A stretch of DNA of 12,356 nt. Source: a virus. The notes under the pieces were generated by a model. The model saw only the letters and a program-made list of their open reading frames with translations, did no database searches and had not been told where the DNA came from. The stretch lies in UHGV virus genome UHGV-0294568; one strand, given 5' to 3'. Positions 1,130 through 11,721 of this stretch are shown here, piece after piece (positions within the stretch are counted from its first letter, which is position 1; the number at the start of each line of letters is the position of its first letter). A program made the position numbers and the translations under genes.

Positions 1130-1468
1130 ATGAACAAAACGATTTTATTCTGCACGATTATTGCCTTAACAGGATGTAAATCTTTGGATTACGTAAAATC
1201 CGGCAAGCCTGTAATGGAAGGTAATTCATTAAAAAATATTGATGAATTGTCAGGCTGCATATCCAGACAATGGGCTGGTAATGGAACACCTATAACATCC
1301 ATTCCTATTGAGAATGGGGTAAGCCTTTTAGTTCCACAGGCTATGGGTGGGTATGATGTTGTGCTTGATATCAAAAAAGCAGGAAATGGCAGTAGTTTTA
1401 CTCTTTATGAACGCGTACCAGCATTAACGCCAAAAATTTTTGCTGATAGTGTTAATGCATGTAAATAA
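1130..1468 (+). CDS. Small lipoprotein of unknown function (moron inserted between I and J)
   Basis: ATG at 1130 gives MNKTILFCTIIALTGCKS, a signal peptide with lipobox LTGC. The track's upstream start at 1118 is TTG. The gene is visibly AT-rich relative to the flanking tail genes and has its own terminator. Lambda has no gene at this position. Confidence 0.6.
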   Translation: MNKTILFCTIIALTGCKSLDYVKSGKPVMEGNSLKNIDELSGCISRQWAGNGTPITSIPIENGVSLLVPQAMGGYDVVLDIKKAGNGSSFTLYERVPALTPKIFADSVNACK

Positions 1469-1492
1469 TAGTTAATCCTGCCGTAACTCATG

Positions 1493-1520
1493 AGCCGCCT
1501 TTTGGGCGGCTTTGTTGTTT
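1493..1520 (+). terminator. Rho-independent terminator-like hairpin after the lipoprotein gene
   Basis: AGCCGCC (1493-1499), loop TTTTG, GGCGGCT (1505-1511), then TTTGTTGTTT. It lies 15 nt upstream of the J start codon. Confidence 0.5.
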
Positions 1521-1534
1521 ATGGAGTGTGAGGA

Positions 1535-4500
1535 ATGGGTAAAGGTAGCAGTAAGGGGCATACCCCGCGCGAAGCGAAGGACAACCTGAAGTCCACGCAG
1601 TTGCTGAGTGTGATCGATGCCATCAGCGAAGGGCCGATTGAAGGTCCGGTGGATGGATTAAAAAGCGTGCTGCTGAACAGTACGCCAGTGCTGGACAGTG
1701 AGGGGAATACCAATATCTCCGGTGTCACGGTGGTGTTCCGGGCCGGTGAGCAGGAGCAGACACCGCCGGAGGGATTTGAATCCTCTGGCTCCGAGACGGT
1801 GCTGGGTACGGAAGTGAAATACGACACGCCGATCACCCGGACCATCACGTCGGCAAACATTGACCGACTGCGTTTTACCTTCGGCGTGCAGGCACTGGTG
1901 GAAACCACCTCAAAGGGGGACAGGAATCCGTCGGAAGTCCGCCTGCTGGTTCAGATCCAGCGTAATGGTGGCTGGGTGACGGAAAAAGACATCACCATTA
2001 AGGGCAAAACCACCTCGCAGTATCTGGCCTCGGTGGTGGTGGGTAACCTGCCGCCGCGCCCGTTCAATATACGGATGCGCAGGATGACGCCGGACAGCAC
2101 CACAGACCAGCTGCAGAACAAAACGCTCTGGTCGTCATACACCGAAATCATCGATGTGAAACAGTGCTACCCGAACACGGCACTGGTCGGCGTGCAGGTG
2201 GACTCGGAGCAGTTCGGCAGCCAGCAGGTGAGCCGTAATTATCATCTTCGCGGACGCATTCTGCAGGTGCCGTCGAACTATAACCCGCAGACGCGGCAAT
2301 ACAGCGGTATCTGGGACGGAACGTTTAAGCCAGCATACAGCAACAACATGGCCTGGTGTCTGTGGGATATGCTGACCCACCCGCGTTACGGCATGGGTAA
2401 ACGTCTTGGTGCGGCAGATGTGGATAAATGGGCGCTGTATGTCATCGGCCAGTGTTGCGACCAGTCGGTGCCGGACGGTTTTGGCGGCACGGAGCCGCGC
2501 ATCACCTGTAATGCCTGGCTGACCACACAGCGTAAGGTGTGGGATGTTCTCAGTGATTTCTGCTCGGCGATGCGCTGTATGCCGGTATGGAACGGGCAGA
2601 CGCTGACGTTCGTGCAGGACCGGCCATCAGATAAGGTGTGGACCTATAACCGCAGTAATGTGGTGATGCCGGATGATGGCGCGCCGTTCCGCTACAGCTT
2701 CAGCGCCCTGAAGGACCGCCATAATGCCGTTGAGGTGAACTGGATTGACCCGGACAACGGCTGGGAGACGGCGACAGAGCTTGTGGAGGATACGCAGGCC
2801 ATTGCCCGTTACGGTCGTAACGTCACGAAGATGGATGCCTTTGGCTGTACCAGCCGGGGGCAGGCACACCGCGCCGGGCTGTGGCTGATTAAAACGGAGC
2901 TGCTGGAAACGCAGACCGTGGACTTCAGCGTGGGTGCTGAAGGGCTTCGCCATGTACCGGGCGATGTCATTGAAATCTGCGATGATGACTATGTCGGTAT
3001 CAGCACCGGTGGTCGCGTGCTGGCGGTGAACAGCCAGACCCGGACGCTGACGCTCGACCGTGAAATCACGCTGCCATCCTCCGGTACCACGCTGATAAGC
3101 CTGGTTGACGGAAGTGGCAATCCGGTCAGCGTGGAGGTCCAGTCCGTCACCGACGGCGTGAAGGTAAAAGTGAGCCGTGTTCCTGACGGCGTTGCCGGAT
3201 ACAGCGTATGGGGGCTGAAGCTGCCGACGCTGCGCCAGCGCCTGTTCCGCTGCGTGAGTATCCGTGAGAACGATGACGGCACGTATGCCATCACCGCCGT
3301 GCAGCATGTACCGGAAAAAGAGGCCATCGTGGATAACGGGGCGCACTTTGACGGCGACCAGAGCGGCACGGTGAATGGTGTCACGCCGCCAGCAGTGCAG
3401 CATCTGACCGCCGAAGTCACCGCAGACAGCGGGGAATATCAGGTGCTGGCGCGCTGGGACACGCCGAAGGTGGTGAAGGGCGTGAGCTTCCTGCTCCGTC
3501 TGACCGTAACAGCGGATGACGGCAGTGAGTGGCTGGTCAGCACGGCCCGGACGACGGAAACCACTTACCGCTTCACACAACTGGCTCTGGGGAACTACAG
3601 GCTGACAGTCCGGGCAGTAAATGCATGGGGACAGCAGGGCGATCCGGCGTCGGTATCGTTCCGGATTGCCGCACCGGCAGCGCCGTCGCGGATTGAGCTG
3701 ACGCCGGGCTATTTTCAGATAACCGCCACGCCGCATCTTGCGGTTTATGATCCGACGGTACAGTTTGAGTTCTGGTTCTCGGAAAAGCGGATTACCGATA
3801 TCAGGCAGGTTGAAACCACAGCACGCTATCTTGGTACGGCGTTGTACTGGATAGCCGCCAGTATCAATATCAAACCGGGCCATAATTATTATTTTTACGT
3901 TCGCAGTGTGAACACCGTTGGCAAATCGGCATTCGTGGAGGCTGTTGGTCAGCCGAGTGATGACGCATCCGGCTATCTGGATTTTTTCAAAGGCGAGATA
4001 GGGAAAACCCATCTGGCTCAGGAGCTGTGGACGCAGATTGATAACGGTCAGCTTGCGCCTGACCTGGCTGAAATCAGGACATCCATTACGGATGTCAGCA
4101 ATGAAATCACACAGACCGTCAATAAGAAACTGGAAGACCAGAGTGCGGCAATTCAGCAGATACAGAAGGTTCAGGTTGATACAAATAATAACCTGAACAG
4201 CATGTGGGCTGTGAAGCTGCAGCAGATGCAGGACGGACGCCTTTATATCGCGGGTATTGGTGCCGGTATTGAGAACACCCCTGACGGCATGCAGAGTCAG
4301 GTGCTGCTGGCGGCAGACAGGATTGCGATGATTAATCCTGCGAATGGCAACACAAAGCCGATGTTTGTTGGTCAGGGCGATCAGATATTCATGAACGAAG
4401 TGTTCCTGAAACGCCTGACGGCTCCCACCATTACCAGCGGCGGTAATCCTCCGGTATTTTCCCTGACACCGGACGGGCGGCTGACGGCGAAAAATGCCGA

Positions 4501-5032
4501 TATCAGCGGTAACGTGAATGCGAACGCCGGGACGCTCAACAATGTCACGGTAAATGAAAACTGTACGATTAAGGGCATGCTGGAGGCGACTCAGGTCAGA
4601 GGTGACTTCGTTAAAGCTGTATCCAAATCATTCCCGAAACAGGCTGGTACGTGGGGTAACACGGAAACACCAAACGGGACGGTTACAGTCACCATCAGCG
4701 ATGATCATAACTTTGACCGTCAAATCATTATTCCACCCATTATCTTTAACGGAATAGCGTATAGCGATCCGGGAAGTGGTAATAACCCGGGAGGTACAAG
4801 ATACACGGGTTATGGTTTTGAAGTTCGCAAAAACGGTGTATTAATCGCATCCAGAGAAACTAAAGGGGCCATTCCCGGTAGCTACAGTGCGGTTATTGAT
4901 ATGCCGAGTGGCAGGGGAAGCGTCACTCTGGAGTTTAAGGTTTTCCATAAAGGCAATCAGTGGGCAGGTAATATCACCGACTGTACGGTGATTGTGACCA
5001 AAAAAGCTGCTTCCGGCATCAGTATTCGTTGA
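1535..5032 (+). CDS. J: Host specificity protein J (tail tip central fibre)
   Basis: The 1165-aa ORF starts [54 protein letters not shown], as I recall for lambda J. Size and position after I match the lambdoid order. GGAG lies 8 nt upstream of the ATG. Confidence 0.95.
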
Positions 5033-5053
5033 AGTTGTTATAACCCATATAAG

Positions 5054-5077
5054 GGCACCAGAAATGGTGCCTTTTTT
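5054..5077 (+). terminator. Rho-independent terminator after J
   Basis: GGCACC (5054-5059), loop AGAAAT, GGTGCC (5066-5071), then TTTTTT (5072-5077). Confidence 0.6.
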
Positions 5078-5101: not shown

Positions 5102-5701
5102 ATGCGTAAACTTTATGCCGCCATTTTGTCCGCAGCCATTTGTCTGGCCGTATCCGGTGCGCCTGCATGGGCATCTGAACATCAGTCCACGCTGAGCGCG
5201 GGGTATCTTCATGCCCGGACCAACGTTCCCGGCAGCGATGATCTGAACGGGATTAACGTGAAATACCGTTATGAGTTTACGGACACACTGGGGCTGGTGA
5301 CGTCATTCAGCTATGCAGGAGACAAGAATCGCCAGCTGACCCATTACAGCGATACCCGCTGGCATGAGGATTCCGTGCGTAACCGCTGGTTCAGCGTGAT
5401 GGCGGGGCCGTCTGTACGTGTGAATGAATGGTTCAGCGCGTATGCGATGGCAGGCGTGGCTTACAGCCGTGTGTCGACTTTTTCCGGGGATTATCTCCGC
5501 GTAACTGACAACAAGGGAAAAACGCACGACGTGCTGACCGGAAGTGATGACGCTCGCCACAGTAACACCTCTCTGGCGTGGGGAGCTGGCGTGCAGTTTA
5601 ACCCGACCGAATCCGTGGCCGTTGATGTCGCTTATGAAGGCTCCGGCAGTGGCAACTGGCGCACTGACGGGTTCATCGTGGGTGTCGGTTATAAGTTCTG
5701 A
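5102..5701 (+). CDS. lom: Lom outer membrane protein (Ail/Lom/PagC/Rck family beta-barrel)
   Basis: The 199-aa product has a signal peptide (MRKLYAAILSAAICLAVSGAPAWA) and ends in the aromatic residue F (GFIVGVGYKF), typical of OMP beta-barrels. It is at the lambda lom position between J and stf, with AGAGGT 5 nt upstream of the ATG. Confidence 0.85.
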   Translation: MRKLYAAILSAAICLAVSGAPAWASEHQSTLSAGYLHARTNVPGSDDLNGINVKYRYEFTDTLGLVTSFSYAGDKNRQLTHYSDTRWHEDSVRNRWFSVMAGPSVRVNEWFSAYAMAGVAYSRVSTFSGDYLRVTDNKGKTHDVLTGSDDARHSNTSLAWGAGVQFNPTESVAVDVAYEGSGSGNWRTDGFIVGVGYKF

Positions 5702-5727: not shown

Positions 5728-5754
5728 AGCCCGCCGGTTCAGGCGGGCTTTTTT
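5728..5754 (+). terminator. Rho-independent terminator after lom
   Basis: AGCCCGCC (5728-5735), loop GGTTCA, GGCGGGCT (5742-5749), then TTTTT (5750-5754). Confidence 0.65.
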
Positions 5755-5765
5755 GTGGGGTGAAT

Positions 5766-8700
5766 ATGGCAGTAAAGATTTCAGGTGTACTGAAAGACGG
5801 TGCAGGTAAACCGGTACAGAACTGCACAATCCAGCTGAAAGCAAAACGTAACAGCACCACGGTGGTGGTGAACACGGTGGCATCTGAAAATCCGGATGAA
5901 GCCGGGCGTTACAGCATGGACGTTGAGTACGGTCAGTACAGCGTTATTCTGTTGGTGGAAGGATTCCCGCCGTCACATGCCGGGACCATCACCGTGTATG
6001 AAGATTCCCGACCCGGTACGCTGAATGATTTTCTCGGTGCCATGACGGAGGATGATGCCCGTCCGGAGGCACTGCGCCGCTTTGAACTGATGGTGGAAGA
6101 GGTGGCGCGTAACGCGTCCGCAGTGGCGCAGAACACAGCAGCCGCGAAGAAGTCAGCCAGCGATGCCGGCACATCAGCCCGTGAGGCGGCAACCCGTGCG
6201 ACTGATGCTGCAGGCTCAGCACGTGCAGCCAGCACGTCAGCCGGACAGGCCGCGTCGTCGGCTCAGTCAGCGTCTTCCAGCGCAGGAACGGCATCAGCAA
6301 AGGCTACTGAAGCATCAAAAAGTGCTGCCGCTGCAGAGTCTTCAAAAAGCGCGGCAGCCACCAGTGCCGGTGCAGCGAAAACGTCGGAAATGAATGCCGC
6401 AGCATCACAAAAATCTGCGGCCACATCTGCATCCACCGCGACCACGAAAGCGTCAGAAGCTGCCACCTCAGCCCGGGATGCGTCGGCTTCAAAAGTGGCG
6501 GCAAAATCATCAGAAACGAGCGCTGCCTCGAGCGCCGGCAGTGCAGCTTCCTCGGCAACGGCAGCAGGAAATTCCGCGAAGGCCGCAAAAACGTCTGAGA
6601 CGAATGCGGATAACAGCGCACAGGCGGCAGCAGACTCACAAACTGCATCGGCAAACTCCGCGACAGCAGCCAAAAAATCAGAAACCAACGCGAAAAATAG
6701 TGAGTCAGCAGCAAAGGTCAGCGAAACCAACGCTAAAGCGTCAGAGAACAAGGCGAAAGAATATCTCGACAAGGTCGGGGGACTCGTCAGCCCGATGACG
6801 CAATACGATTGGCCTGTTGTTACTGCTAGTGAGTCTCTTTACATCAAGATCGCGAAACTTTCCGATCCTGGAACCAGCAGAAGTCATGTAACGCTAATGG
6901 TTACTAACGCTGGTAACTACGGCTCCCCTTACGGAAACATTGACTTTATCGAGATCTCGGCGCGCGGTCTGCCTTCTTTGCTTAGTGCGGATAATGTTTC
7001 TCGTCATCTGAGTATACGCCGCTTAGGGTCAACCGGGCTGACCGATAACAACCAGATGCGTTACGGCCTGGTTAAAGGTGACGGCTTTATTGAGGTTTGG
7101 GCATTCCAGGGTGCGTTTATTAACGACGCAAAGGTTGCGGTGCTGGCGCAGACAACACTAAACACAGAATTATACATTCCAGACGGATTTGTTAAGCAAA
7201 CCGCCGCGCCTTCTGGATATATTGAAGGCAACGTTGTAAGGATTTACGACCAGGTAAACAAGCCGACTAAAGCAGATTTGGGCCTTTCTAATGCTATGCT
7301 TATAGGCGCTTTTGGTCTTGGCGGTAGCGGTCTTGTTTTGGATGGTAAAATGACCGATAAGGAACTACTACAAGAGCTAAGGGCGAAAGGTGGGTGTTTC
7401 TGGAGGTCAGGAAAACCAACAGGTAGCGAATCAACAATTTTCAGCCACGGTTCTGGTATATTCTCGCGGTGCGGCGATACGTGGTCAGCTATTAATATCG
7501 ATTACGAAAGCGGTAGAGTAAAGATTTACTCTAGTAACGATAATAGACTCAACAATGGTACTTTTAACATAAATGAGCTATACGGAACCAAATACAAGCC
7601 GTCGAAATCGGATGTTGGACTTGGTAACGTAACTAACGATGCGCAGGTGAAAAAATCCGGCGACATTATGTCAGGTAATCTGTCGATCACTAAAGCAACA
7701 CCTTCACTATTCCTGCGTTCAAAAAGTGGAACCGCCCATGTATGGTTCCAAAATGAGGATCAGTCGGAACGCGGCGTTATTTTTGCGCCTACAAATACTG
7801 ATACGCTTGGCGAAGTTCACATCAGGGCTAAAAACGCAAAAGGTCAATCAAGTGGTGATTTTATTGTTCGTCACGACGGGATGGTTGAAGCCCGTGATCT
7901 CACATTAGCGGGTAAAACTAAAGGCGCAAAAGCAGAATTTGCAAACACAAGCACTAGATCCGATGATACTACGGTAAGCATAAAAGGATCTCAGCATACT
8001 CCTCTGGTTTTAACGCGCAACAACACAATTAAAAATTTATCCATTGGGTTTAAGGTTGATGACGTTGACCAAAAATATCTCGGCATATACGGTGACGGTG
8101 ATTTGTATTTTGGTGGTTATTCTGACCACACAAAAAACAGCAAAGTAATTACACAAGCAATACTCGATAGCGGGGTAACGGTAGGCGGCAAAACAACATT
8201 TTCTGACCTTGCCACATTTAACGCAGGTATGTCTGGGCCTATCGAGCCGGAAGCCATTGAAGGCATGACTATCGATCTTAATGACCTTATCATTAAGTTC
8301 ACGGATAAAGGTTCAGTTAAATACTATCACTGCAAAACTGCCGGAGGCGGTTCGAATATTACCAATAAGCCTGACGGCGTAGGCGGCAACTTTTTGCTTC
8401 GTGTAGAGTCAATTCGTAAGGTTAGTGATTCAGATTATATAAACATGCAAACGCTGATTAGCGGCGACAAAGGACGCGTGCATGTTCGTTTTGTTACTAA
8501 TGGTAATTGGACAGCATGGAGCGAGCATGTTGTTTCAGGATGGAATCAGGATGTGACCGTCAGGTCGTTAACCTCGACGACTCCATCAAAATTAGGCGGC
8601 GGGCGTGTTGATGTGCTGGGGAGTACGTCAGATTACAGTAGTATGAATTGTGCTGTGCGCGGTGTTGATAGCACTGGAACCAATTCGGCGTGGTCAGTAG

Positions 8701-9527
8701 GTACATCGGAAAACACGGGAAAAATGTTGTGCCTTAAAAACCACAGAAGCAGCGCTCAAGTGCTGTTAAATGGCGATGATGGCGCGGTGCAACTACTAAG
8801 CGGTACTGTCAACGGTGCTACAGCACAGGCGCTAACCATCAACAAAGATGAGGTTAACTCAACTGCTGATTTAGTAATTAGAAAACAGTCAGGGACTGGC
8901 AATCGTTTTGTTTTAAAGAACGCAGGTAATGCAGAACTACCGTTTAACATCAGTGTATGGGGTTCAAGTGATCGACAAAACGTTTTTGAGGTTGGAACGT
9001 CTGCTGCGTATCTGTTTTATGCGCAAAGAACGCCAGCAGGCCAGTTGTTTGATGTAAATGGCGCTATTAATTGCACAACGCTGAATCAGTCATCAGACCG
9101 CGACCTTAAAGACGATATTCTCGTTATCAGCGACGCGACGAAAGCAATCCGCAAAATGAACGGGTACACCTACACGCTCAAGGAAAACGGCCTTCCTTAT
9201 GCTGGCGTTATTGCACAGGAAGTAATGGAGGCGCTACCGGAAGCCGTAGGATCGTTTACTCGTTACGGTGAAGAATTGCAGGGTCCGACCATTGATGGCA
9301 ACGAGCTACGCGAAGAAACGCGTTACCTCAATGTTGATTATGCGGCGGTGACTGGTTTACTTGTCCAGGTCGCCCGTGAAACAGATGATCGCGTTACCGC
9401 GCTGGAAGAGGAAAACACAACGCTACGTCAAAATCTGGCAACAGCAGACACCCGGATCAGCACTCTGGAAAATCAGGTAAGCGAACTGGTTGCACTTGTC
9501 CGGCAGTTAACAGGAAGCGAACATTGA
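5766..9527 (+). CDS. stf: Side tail fibre protein, mosaic: lambda Stf-like N-terminus, Ala/Ser/Thr-rich repeat block, divergent distal region, C-terminal intramolecular-chaperone (peptidase S74-like) domain
   Basis: ATG at 5766 gives MAVKISGVLKDGAGKPVQNCTIQLKAKRNSTTVVVNTVASENPDEAGRYSMDVEYGQYSV, as I recall for lambda Stf; the track start at 5760 is GTG. The C-terminus has SSDRDLKDDILVIS ... GYTYTLKENG followed by a heptad-like coiled coil (LEEENTTLRQNLATADTRISTLENQVSELVALVRQL), as in self-cleaving chaperone domains of endosialidase-type fibres. GC drops after about 6780. Confidence 0.85.
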   Translation: MAVKISGVLKDGAGKPVQNCTIQLKAKRNSTTVVVNTVASENPDEAGRYSMDVEYGQYSVILLVEGFPPSHAGTITVYEDSRPGTLNDFLGAMTEDDARPEALRRFELMVEEVARNASAVAQNTAAAKKSASDAGTSAREAATRATDAAGSARAASTSAGQAASSAQSASSSAGTASAKATEASKSAAAAESSKSAAATSAGAAKTSEMNAAASQKSAATSASTATTKASEAATSARDASASKVAAKSSETSAASSAGSAASSATAAGNSAKAAKTSETNADNSAQAAADSQTASANSATAAKKSETNAKNSESAAKVSETNAKASENKAKEYLDKVGGLVSPMTQYDWPVVTASESLYIKIAKLSDPGTSRSHVTLMVTNAGNYGSPYGNIDFIEISARGLPSLLSADNVSRHLSIRRLGSTGLTDNNQMRYGLVKGDGFIEVWAFQGAFINDAKVAVLAQTTLNTELYIPDGFVKQTAAPSGYIEGNVVRIYDQVNKPTKADLGLSNAMLIGAFGLGGSGLVLDGKMTDKELLQELRAKGGCFWRSGKPTGSESTIFSHGSGIFSRCGDTWSAINIDYESGRVKIYSSNDNRLNNGTFNINELYGTKYKPSKSDVGLGNVTNDAQVKKSGDIMSGNLSITKATPSLFLRSKSGTAHVWFQNEDQSERGVIFAPTNTDTLGEVHIRAKNAKGQSSGDFIVRHDGMVEARDLTLAGKTKGAKAEFANTSTRSDDTTVSIKGSQHTPLVLTRNNTIKNLSIGFKVDDVDQKYLGIYGDGDLYFGGYSDHTKNSKVITQAILDSGVTVGGKTTFSDLATFNAGMSGPIEPEAIEGMTIDLNDLIIKFTDKGSVKYYHCKTAGGGSNITNKPDGVGGNFLLRVESIRKVSDSDYINMQTLISGDKGRVHVRFVTNGNWTAWSEHVVSGWNQDVTVRSLTSTTPSKLGGGRVDVLGSTSDYSSMNCAVRGVDSTGTNSAWSVGTSENTGKMLCLKNHRSSAQVLLNGDDGAVQLLSGTVNGATAQALTINKDEVNSTADLVIRKQSGTGNRFVLKNAGNAELPFNISVWGSSDRQNVFEVGTSAAYLFYAQRTPAGQLFDVNGAINCTTLNQSSDRDLKDDILVISDATKAIRKMNGYTYTLKENGLPYAGVIAQEVMEALPEAVGSFTRYGEELQGPTIDGNELREETRYLNVDYAAVTGLLVQVARETDDRVTALEEENTTLRQNLATADTRISTLENQVSELVALVRQLTGSEH
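6111..6760 (+). repeat. Low-complexity imperfect tandem repeats inside stf (Ala/Ser/Thr-rich, recurring AAK(T/K)SETNA-like units)
   Basis: Protein residues about 118-335 are almost entirely A/S/T/K/E, with recurring units AAKTSEMNAAAS, AAKTSETNADNS, AAKKSETNAKNS and AKVSETNAKAS. The track's antisense ORFs here are composition artefacts. Confidence 0.6.
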
Positions 9528-9893: not shown

Positions 9894-11192
9894 CTATTTC
9901 ACTATTGCTAAGTTTTTTTCATTCTCTTTCCCTATCCACATAGAAACAATTTCTCGTTTCTGAGATATATGTAGATTGTCAAAGTTAGGTATGTATTTAA
10001 AAGTCTCCGCTCTACCCCTGCGGAGTTCATAGAAAGTTTTAATCAAAGACTTTGGTTTTATTTCTGATGAAAGGCCGAATCGGCGGATAAGATTATTGAT
10101 CGTATGATTAACAGCTCGAAGTTGAGCTGTTGACGTTATTTGTGAGAAGTACGATACCCATCCCAATCGTTTACCTTCAAACACACATCCCGTAATTCTA
10201 AGATTTAGTTTCCACTGACAATATGCAACAGCTCGTTCTTTATCGCGCTTATTTTTAGCTTGTAGTAGAGCGTGTCTATATGCAGTAAAAATTTTTGCTA
10301 AGGATGACTCAAATCTAAGAATGCTCTCATGTTTTATCAATAATTCTCGATTTTTTATGTGGTAGCCCAAAAAGTTGAAACTTTCATCCAAGCTGCCTAC
10401 TTTGGATTTTGAGTTCTCTTCATTTAATGGATGTGGGTTTAAATTTAATGATTGAAGCTTATCAATGATATGAGAAGCTATTTTTGTTGCTTGATATTTT
10501 GGTGTTAAAATAAGAATGTCATCAACGTATCGCATGTACCATATGTCATGCATTTTATTGATTTCATCATCGAAATTAGATAGTGATATTTCAGCTAAAA
10601 TGTTTGATATCGCTAATCCCTGAGGTACTCCTCTGGTATTATTAGGGATACCTTTGCTTCCTGTGGTTCCACTTACAGTAGGCACGATTAATGATGATGT
10701 TATTAACTGTCTAATTTCTTTTTTTCTAATTTTATTTTTTATTGCATTAATTATCAATTTATGTTCAATTGAAGGATAGAAACTTTTAAGATCTATTTTT
10801 GCATATTCAGCATATAGACTGTTGTTTAATGCTTCTTTCAATGAGTCAATTACTGTATGTGGTAGTTTTAATCTGGACTTAGGATATATTTCCGTAAGGC
10901 ATTCACAGAGAGCTCTAAGAGTAATTCTGTCCCTAGCAGTTGGTATGGAAATCTGTCTGGGTGTAGAGTTAGCGCCTTTAGATATTAATTTTTCTTTATA
11001 TGCTGTAAATTTGTAATTGCCAGAATTAACCTTTTCAAAAATGAAAGTGATCTCATTTTTTATTGTCAAATCAAGTTTTGATGGGCGAATCCGATCTATG
11101 CCAATCGCTCCTGATTCTTTGATTTTTTCAGAGTATACTTTTAGAAGATTTTTTTTCGAGAATGACTTTTTAAAAATTCTGCTTGCAGTCAT
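9894..11192 (-). CDS. Reverse transcriptase, compact single-domain type (fingers-palm-thumb), family unassigned
   Basis: RT motifs are readable in order: GIDRI; RQISIPTARDRITLRAL; IDLKSFYPSIEH; GVPQGLAISNILAE; YMRYVDDILIL; FNFLGYHI; and a thumb-like RLGWVSYF. The track start at 11198 is TTG; the first ATG is at 11192. The 5' end overlaps the upstream membrane-protein gene by 23 nt. Sampled lines are about 22-33% GC, against about 57% in one J line. Confidence 0.85.
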   Translation of the reverse strand: MTASRIFKKSFSKKNLLKVYSEKIKESGAIGIDRIRPSKLDLTIKNEITFIFEKVNSGNYKFTAYKEKLISKGANSTPRQISIPTARDRITLRALCECLTEIYPKSRLKLPHTVIDSLKEALNNSLYAEYAKIDLKSFYPSIEHKLIINAIKNKIRKKEIRQLITSSLIVPTVSGTTGSKGIPNNTRGVPQGLAISNILAEISLSNFDDEINKMHDIWYMRYVDDILILTPKYQATKIASHIIDKLQSLNLNPHPLNEENSKSKVGSLDESFNFLGYHIKNRELLIKHESILRFESSLAKIFTAYRHALLQAKNKRDKERAVAYCQWKLNLRITGCVFEGKRLGWVSYFSQITSTAQLRAVNHTINNLIRRFGLSSEIKPKSLIKTFYELRRGRAETFKYIPNFDNLHISQKREIVSMWIGKENEKNLAIVK

Positions 11193-11721
11193 AGTCAATC
11201 CAAAGATATATTAATGGGAGTATATAAAGTGCGGCAGTAATAAATATTCGAAGTAATATCCATAAAATAACAATTATTTTTTCTTTTTGTGTGGGGATCC
11301 TCGTCTTAAGTCCAACTTGAGTTACCCTTGAAATTTTATCATCTATGTCACGGTGATTCTCAACCTCATTGAGCAAATTAAAATATTTTTCTTTCTGTTC
11401 AAGAGATAACTGTTGACTGGTGGTAATGTCAAAATAGAGTCGCTGTAGTGCAATATAATTCCTTCTCATGGCTATTGCTCGACCACGAAAATCTAGGTTA
11501 GATACGATCAGAGAAATACCCAGTAGAGCCACTGAAAGTATCGCCGCAACGACATCTGTATTATCTCCTAGAACCTTTGGAAATCGCAACGTTACAATTG
11601 AAAGTACCGCACTCAATATAGCATACCAAACGAGGATAAATTGAGAGTGTTTTTCAAGCCATTCTAGTCGATGGTGCGCTTGGATACGTGCTTTATATGT
11701 AAACCAAATATTGTCATGCAT
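11170..11721 (-). CDS. Multi-pass membrane protein (2TM N-terminal module plus long C-terminal hydrophobic segment), candidate effector partner of the RT
   Basis: The 183-aa product has hydrophobic segments at about residues 27-45 (FILVWYAILSAVLSIVTL), 56-74 (VVAAILSVALLGISLIVS) and 148-175 (IIVILWILLRIFITAALYILPLIYLWI), with a basic helix between. AAGGA lies about 6 nt upstream of the ATG. It shares AT-richness and strand with the RT. Confidence 0.55.
   Translation of the reverse strand: MHDNIWFTYKARIQAHHRLEWLEKHSQFILVWYAILSAVLSIVTLRFPKVLGDNTDVVAAILSVALLGISLIVSNLDFRGRAIAMRRNYIALQRLYFDITTSQQLSLEQKEKYFNLLNEVENHRDIDDKISRVTQVGLKTRIPTQKEKIIVILWILLRIFITAALYILPLIYLWIDYDCKQNF

Follow-up and report, generated by a model that had tools for sequence, protein, structure and literature searches.

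An uncharacterised lipoprotein moron between tail genes I and J of a lambda-like Escherichia coli prophage

A 12,356-nt stretch of DNA from UHGV virus genome UHGV-0294568, called here the window, carries a small predicted lipoprotein gene between the tail genes I and J, and the question raised by this arrangement is what such a gene does beside the gene for host specificity. The first-pass annotation had described it as an AT-rich lipoprotein moron with its own terminator, and had proposed a receptor-masking or other lysogenic-conversion factor matched to the specificity of J. According to our analysis the gene is indeed extra and compositionally foreign at this place, while its matching to J does not hold.

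Gene order, taken from open reading frames and Pfam matches, identifies the window as the tail end of a lambda-like E. coli prophage, with K (partial, NlpC/P60), I (416-1057), the lipoprotein ORF (1130-1468), J (1535-5032), lom (5102-5701) and a side tail fibre gene (5760-9527). Gene I, the left flank on the plus strand, is a tail assembly gene outside the insert (Pfam Lambda_tail_I, E=1.5e-24), and J, the right flank on the same strand, encodes 1165 aa with the Pfam domains FNIII-A_GpJ, Ig_J, Phage_Tail_Tip and Ig_GpJ_C and a receptor-binding domain at about aa 1029-1164. Positions 1000-1600 are 100% identical to many E. coli chromosomes; in O55:H7 CB9615 the identical stretch lies in a prophage adjoining prfC, where the ORF is deposited as 'hypothetical protein' WP_153274582.1.

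Further to the right, the side tail fibre gene encodes 1255 aa with a Peptidase_S74 intramolecular chaperone domain close to the C-terminus, and no separate tfa-like gene stands between it and the pair that follows. On the minus strand, 9894-11721 holds a reverse transcriptase of 434 aa (PADLOC RT_UG17, E=8e-151; Pfam RVT_1), whose ORF overlaps a SLATT_5 two-transmembrane effector of 183 aa (RTasSLATT, E=1.5e-56); judged by these matches, the pair is a predicted DRT-type anti-phage defence that lies past the tail fibre gene, at the prophage's right end. Rfam gave no RNA family anywhere in the window, including the surroundings of the RT/SLATT_5 pair.

The insert and its gene

Between the end of I at 1057 and the start of J at 1535 there is a gap of 477 nt, against 60 nt in lambda (DE3) and in phage Ayreon, and the earlier remark that lambda has no such gap was essentially right. 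Similarity to lambda and Ayreon stops at the I stop codon, and in the alignment with lambda it restarts inside the hairpin that precedes J, not past it. The boundaries set by alignment define the insert as a 434-nt accessory cassette (1058-1491) lying between the I stop codon and this conserved pre-J hairpin and beginning with an AT-rich leader of 72 nt on the plus strand (1058-1129). As expected of a moron in the Hendrix/Juhala sense, the gene is an extra one between neighbours, I and J, which are adjacent in the related phages lambda and Ayreon, and its composition is unlike theirs: its GC content of 0.37, against 0.57 upstream and 0.60 downstream, confirms the AT-richness first noticed, and the gene has a lower GC than its flanks in 10 of 10 diverged representatives of its family too. 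In the 100 nt upstream of the ORF the GC content is 0.31.

The ORF, on the plus strand, runs from the ATG at 1130 to the TAA at 1466-1468, and its product, MNKTILFCTIIALTGC|KSLD..., begins MNKTILFCTIIALTGCKSLD... and counts 112 aa, so that translation confirms a predicted lipoprotein of this length with the lipobox LTGC. The signal peptide covers aa 1-15 and has the layout of a lipoprotein signal, a positively charged n-region M-N-K and a hydrophobic core TILFCTIIA followed by the lipobox L13-T14-G15-C16 (1166-1177), in agreement with the pattern [LVI][ASTVI][GAS]C expected within about 35 residues of the N-terminus. Cys16, the predicted lipidation site, is encoded at 1175-1177, and two further cysteines, the conserved Cys43 and Cys111, at 1256-1258 and 1460-1462. 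An alternative TTG start at 1118 is unlikely, because homologues start with MKK or MNK.

All 60 copies of the E. coli type that were examined have the ORF intact, and the 15 polymorphic nucleotide sites among them include 9 at third codon positions. The common alleles are one conservative change apart, I58L, and only conservative amino acid changes are common; the gene is under purifying selection. It is present in 337 of 5,426 complete E. coli genomes (about 6%; 333-337 depending on the count), and among the carriers are O104:H4 C227-11, O55:H7 CB9615 and APEC O1 as well as commensal and animal isolates. In three IMG/VR loci (L024, L029 and L048) the lipoprotein ORF is intact despite a large internal deletion or insertion in J, which hints at its retention in decaying prophages, with the small numbers and possible assembly errors to be taken in account.

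Family, slots and the pre-J hairpin

The lipoprotein is a member of a moron family that was noticed previously and is uncharacterised. Residues 1-112 match positions 1-118 of the 118-position PHROG 914 profile (E=5.7e-33), which is also matched by the members from phage Fraca and from locus L068. Word-indexed searches brought about 80 unnamed relatives from Escherichia, Klebsiella, Enterobacter, Kluyvera, Citrobacter, Atlantibacter, Pantoea and Jejubacter, and an exhaustive profile search extended the family to about 385 clusters at 50% identity, nearly all of 105-125 aa. A lipobox is found in 127 of 146 family representatives; 133 sequences with 15-38% identity to the window protein all have C43, and C16, K35, G63 and C111 are nearly invariant among them. 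Gp19 of phiKO2 belongs to the same family and was deposited, with a putative terminator, as 'putative moron gene product; similar to Xanthomonas gene XCC2962', from which it follows that the class was noticed some 20 years ago without a function. A literature search found no paper that mentions the family accessions, XCC2962 or phrog_914. A gene annotated only as 'hypothetical protein' stands for a family of several hundred clusters for which there is no Pfam model.

Distant relatives occur in ordinary chromosomal neighbourhoods of Pseudomonas. In a Dyella telluris chromosome and in a metagenomic contig (L095 and L096, about 5900-7400), distant members adjoin a dihydrofolate reductase gene in an island rich in ParB and helicase genes, which may be a putative prophage of DLP4/AXL1 type carrying folA; the papers on DLP4 and AXL1 do not discuss the family.

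Structure prediction gave a confident fold (AlphaFold2, alignment of 59 sequences, mean pLDDT 88), modelled in the order strand, helix, four strands, helix, with two helices packed on a five-stranded sheet. C43 and C111 are located in the two long helices of the model, which suggests that a Cys43-Cys111 disulfide may staple them together. Full-length homologues down to about 25% identity, the 60 intact copies out of 60 and the pLDDT of 88 together indicate a real gene and not a chance ORF. The fold itself is generic. Foldseek gave no match below E=1e-2 in the PDB, BFVD matches were uncharacterised phage proteins only, and PDB sequence searches matched nothing but signal peptides. The closest fold is that of the Francisella lipoprotein Flpp3, at 6% identity; Flpp3/DUF3568 and the N-terminal domain of BamC are structural neighbours at 6-10% identity and with no Pfam match, and function is not transferable from either. 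For the window protein no family was found at E<=1 in Pfam, the Bor and TraT models included, or in PADLOC, and no NCBIfam model matched; among 133 distant relatives, Pfam returned only the lipid-attachment-site model and stray domains of unknown function.

A survey of 80 IMG/VR loci and several phage records, compared with tail proteins taken from the window and from phage Fraca, shows that lambda-like tail operons received the gene independently in three slots. The E. coli lambdoid prophages have it between I and J, in the order K-I-lipoprotein-J. The slot between K and I is used in Fraca, LMessi, phiKO2 and many uncultured relatives, in the order K-(x)-lipoprotein-I-J, and also in L067 and L075, and L066 and L097 have the family gene within a K|I gap which holds other small genes. 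The third slot, between the tail chaperone and tape-measure genes, belongs to a Klebsiella/Enterobacter group of IMG/VR contigs (L068-L073), with the family gene at 6001-6342. Members in tail operons are always on the operon strand, and members outside tail operons exist as well. In Fraca, a 'hypothetical protein' (phrog_2320, about 4671-4994) lies just upstream of the family member and would start MRKFLSILACSLIIVGC if an upstream ATG were used; with that ATG there would be two tandem lipoprotein genes between Fraca K and I.

These data bear on the explanation that the gene is a passenger without current function, a hitch-hiking remnant linked to the tail genes, which would agree with its lack of a named function and of a detectable promoter. 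We regard it as scarcely credible, since the ORF is intact in every copy examined, with substitutions mostly at third codon positions and conservative amino acid changes, the family is conserved to about 25% identity with its invariant cysteines, and the placement in three slots was independent.

The right border of the insert is a GC-rich hairpin, GAGCCGCC-TTTT-GGGCGGCTT at 1492-1512, followed by TGTTGTTTAT. With 9 pairs and -14.9 kcal/mol it ranks second among terminator-like sites of the whole window, and together with its T-tract it makes up a terminator-like junction element (1492-1522, plus strand) directly upstream of the J ribosome-binding site. Lambda, with no lipoprotein gene, has AAACCGCC-TGC-GGGCGGTTTTGTCATTTATGGAG in the same place, and the same pre-J hairpin is found in lambda, Ayreon, N15, phiKO2 and Fraca, being annotated as a terminator or stem-loop by the depositors of Ayreon, N15 and phiKO2. 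Since phages that lack the gene have this element before J as well, we do not regard the hairpin as belonging to the gene: of the terminator ascribed to the lipoprotein gene earlier, the hairpin with its T-tract stands, to be qualified as a conserved pre-J element. Two histories would produce this pattern, loss of the gene from lambda-type phages, with the hairpin retained, or arrival of the gene on the upstream side of a hairpin already there. The notion that the hairpin is the right end of a self-contained cassette was also considered and is ruled out by the alignment with lambda, Ayreon and N15.

The conserved pre-J element as a whole covers 1492-1534 and has the form RRCCRCC-loop-GGYGGYT, a T-run and ATGGAG/ATGGGC, in the window as in lambda, Ayreon, N15, phiKO2 and Fraca, and Fraca has a near-identical copy of it after the lipoprotein gene, in its K|I slot. 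The element may serve as a boundary or a site of recombination when cassettes are exchanged, or else act on stability or translation of the J mRNA. Where the lipoprotein gene occupies the K|I or the chaperone|tape-measure slot, it is accompanied by a hairpin, and N15, where K and I abut with no lipoprotein gene, has no hairpin between them; a GC-rich hairpin with T-tract, of unrelated sequence, lies 5-45 nt past the stop codon in 9 of 10 diverged representatives. Strong terminator-like hairpins at 5051-5074 and 5728-5749 also flank lom (J-t-lom-t-stf), and the same three terminators were annotated by the depositors of the Ayreon record, from which the tail end appears as a series of hairpin-delimited units.

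At its left side the insert offers little for independent expression. The leader has a weak Shine-Dalgarno sequence and no convincing sigma-70 promoter: a consensus scan found no plus-strand promoter upstream of the ORF, the best sigma-70 match in the leader being 8 of 12 positions, a score equalled by 70% of shuffles, and in the same kind of scan the best hexamer pairs upstream of 10 family members were not above shuffled sequence. From the lack of a detectable promoter and the position inside the late operon it follows that the gene would be transcribed at least with the late tail genes; it is certainly placed for such transcription, and presumably undergoes it.

Such placement invites a late lytic role, in which the envelope of the dying cell is modified, for example to spare virions from debris or to favour lysis and release, and T5 Llp has been proposed to keep released virions from being wasted on cell debris. 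The gene is on the strand of the late operon, its relatives in the K|I slot begin 32-36 nt after the preceding gene, a stretch that holds a good ribosome-binding site and is too short for a promoter, and a downstream hairpin is a normal operon feature. We consider this role rather improbable all the same, as protection from debris would need a receptor specificity that is not seen, lambda, Ayreon, N15 and most lambdoid prophages manage without the gene, and low GC with slot hopping fits an accessory gene and not a core late one.

J ends, receptor masking and host benefit

If the lipoprotein were matched to the receptor specificity of J, the two would be expected to change together. In seven E. 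coli loci the lipoprotein is 99-100% identical, whereas the last 150 aa of J are 41-62% identical between types. The same lipoprotein identity, 99-100%, holds for 38 loci in which J is complete, and here the J ends (last 150 aa) sort into four clusters at 3-62% identity, one of which has no relation to the others; three of the clusters contain both the I58 and the L58 allele of the lipoprotein. The Fraca-like lineage behaves alike, with lipoproteins 97-99% identical and J C-termini 29-51% identical, and there the identity of the lipoprotein follows the conserved N-terminal part of J (rho 0.49) better than its C-terminus (rho 0.28). From the other side, the window J shares its C-terminus with phage Ayreon at 100% identity and with long-tailed Stx1a/Stx2c phages at 98%, and the I|J site of Ayreon is empty despite the same J end. 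A similar J end is present in about 2,080 E. coli genomes, against 333-337 with the lipoprotein gene, and the gene of the E. coli type is in none of 50,697 phage records. An invariant lipoprotein beside varied J ends, and the same J end without the gene, lead us to reject the matching to J specificity proposed earlier; closeness to J is insufficient for inferring a receptor-matched function.

We infer that the lipoprotein does not mask a receptor chosen to suit its own J, as an exclusion lipoprotein like Cor or Llp would, by binding the outer-membrane receptor from the periplasm and blocking the phages that use it. In favour of such masking, an outer-membrane-type lipoprotein is encoded next to a receptor-binding gene and there are precedents in T5 Llp, in N15 Cor, about 1 kb downstream of J, and in mEpimmI Lpp010, directly after J (PMC11893012). 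It has become very improbable in view of the unvarying lipoprotein across the four J-end types and in the Fraca lineage, of Ayreon and the long-tailed Stx1a/Stx2c phages, which share the J end and lack the gene, and of the mature domain, whose match to Cor has a probability below 1%. Masking of one fixed receptor regardless of its own J could be envisaged.

Candidate homologies to the known exclusion lipoproteins were pursued and rejected. In hhalign, a 74% match with the N15 Cor precursor fell to 0.8%, and 0.6% with mature Cor, a signal-peptide effect; the window protein does not match PHROG 1119 (Cor) at E<=1, and the PHROG 1119 match of one family member (E=0.006) was gone once the signal peptide was removed. 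T5 Llp (8a60_B) matched residues 1-19 only, the signal peptide (E=0.51), and with mEp010 Lpp010 hhalign aligned the signal peptide only. The statement that no similarity to Llp or Cor was established is thereby upheld by remote homology search.

A lysogenic-conversion envelope factor for the benefit of the host, comparable to lambda Bor/Iss, Lom or plasmid TraT (serum resistance, adhesion, envelope robustness), has a small but real chance of being the right answer. The gene sits in the same tail-end region as lom, the classic lambda moron, it is found in the pathogens named above, its relatives occur in bacterial chromosomes, the ORF is intact where J is deleted or interrupted, and its closest fold, Flpp3, is a virulence determinant by the title of the PDB entry. 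Set against this, there is no promoter detectable for expression in a lysogen, no Pfam match, Bor and TraT families included, the Flpp3 match is one of 6% identity to a generic fold, and the gene is also carried by commensal and animal isolates. As a host-fitness factor it would be a further piece of lysogenic-conversion cargo in the tail region, beside lom and bor.

Proposed function and known systems

It would be logical to suggest, as the best explanation from the analysis as a whole, though tentatively and at somewhat less than even chances, that the lipoprotein is a receptor-independent envelope or exclusion factor. The gene would be transcribed with the late operon by antiterminated polymerase reading through, and the 112-aa prolipoprotein would be processed at Cys16 by Lgt, LspA and Lnt. 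Under the Lol sorting rule, a Lys at +2, with no Lol-avoidance Asp, directs a lipoprotein to the inner leaflet of the outer membrane. The window protein has Lys at this position, and sorting to the outer membrane is predicted from it; Lol would deliver the mature lipoprotein to that leaflet with a domain of about 97 aa facing the periplasm. The envelope would then be changed in such a way as to exclude incoming phages or other mobile DNA, whichever receptor J binds, possibly by interfering in the periplasm with a conserved step that lambda-like tail tips go through after adsorption, or by acting on a general outer-membrane component.

An exclusion role is proposed by analogy, because small lipoproteins next to tail genes exclude phages (PMC11893012; N15 Cor), and further because the slot of HK97 gene 15 is the slot of some family members. 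If the gene has no promoter of its own, exclusion in lysogens would fail, and the relatives found in chromosomes, away from phage genes, point to a housekeeping role in the envelope that phages have only borrowed.

More speculatively, and with a correspondingly low probability, the family may be a new class of periplasm-facing outer-membrane lipoproteins which block DNA delivery by siphophages with lambda-like tips at a receptor-independent step, for instance by binding ejected tape-measure or tip proteins in the periplasm. A block of DNA delivery would explain the travel of these genes with tail-tip modules, including the slot of HK97 gene 15, their constancy while the receptor-binding domain of J is swapped, and the relatives on other mobile elements.

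According to PMC11893012, true lambdoid phages have no lipoprotein known to exclude lambda. Should the receptor-independent exclusion factor which we favour prove correct, it would be the first lipoprotein of this kind from these phages, and its action, independent of the receptor-binding domain, would bear on host-range prediction and on the choice of therapeutic phages.

Among known systems the nearest is phiKO2 gp19 of PHROG 914, which shares with the window protein the family, the size, the lipobox, the cysteine pair, the low GC and a terminator-like hairpin after the gene, and which is likewise inside a tail-tip gene cluster. It differs in its slot, K|I and not I|J, and belongs to another subfamily, being 49% identical to the Fraca member and about 30% identical to the lipoprotein described here.

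The mEpimmI lipoproteins Lpp010 and Lpp021 are encoded in the structural cluster next to J and exclude phages experimentally, the Lpp of mEp010 (Lpp010) excluding LamB-dependent phages with lambda among them (PMC11893012). Compared to the window protein, Lpp010 is smaller (82 aa), belongs to PHROG 12984 and is encoded on the opposite strand, directly after J.

Cor (phi80, N15, T1, HK022; PHROG 1119) is similarly a small outer-membrane-type lipoprotein from the tail region of temperate siphophages, and is the classic model of an entry-blocking lipoprotein. It is shorter, 78 aa, and lies downstream of J (in N15 about 1 kb downstream, after genes 22 and 23), with no homology beyond the signal peptide; Cor acts on FhuA-dependent phages, whereas the window lipoprotein is tied to no J type. 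T5 Llp, encoded beside the receptor-binding gene and disulfide-bonded, inactivates the receptor from the periplasmic side, and proteins of the Llp type co-vary with the receptor-binding protein, unlike the window lipoprotein, which shows no co-variation with J.

For a function that does not depend on the receptor, HK97 gene 15 is a different kind of parallel. It is an exclusion moron between the tail chaperone and tape-measure genes, the same slot that is occupied by the family members of the Klebsiella/Enterobacter group; its product is an inner-membrane protein, not a lipoprotein, whose specificity follows the conserved injection machinery and not the receptor-binding domain, and the likeness to our family concerns gene position.
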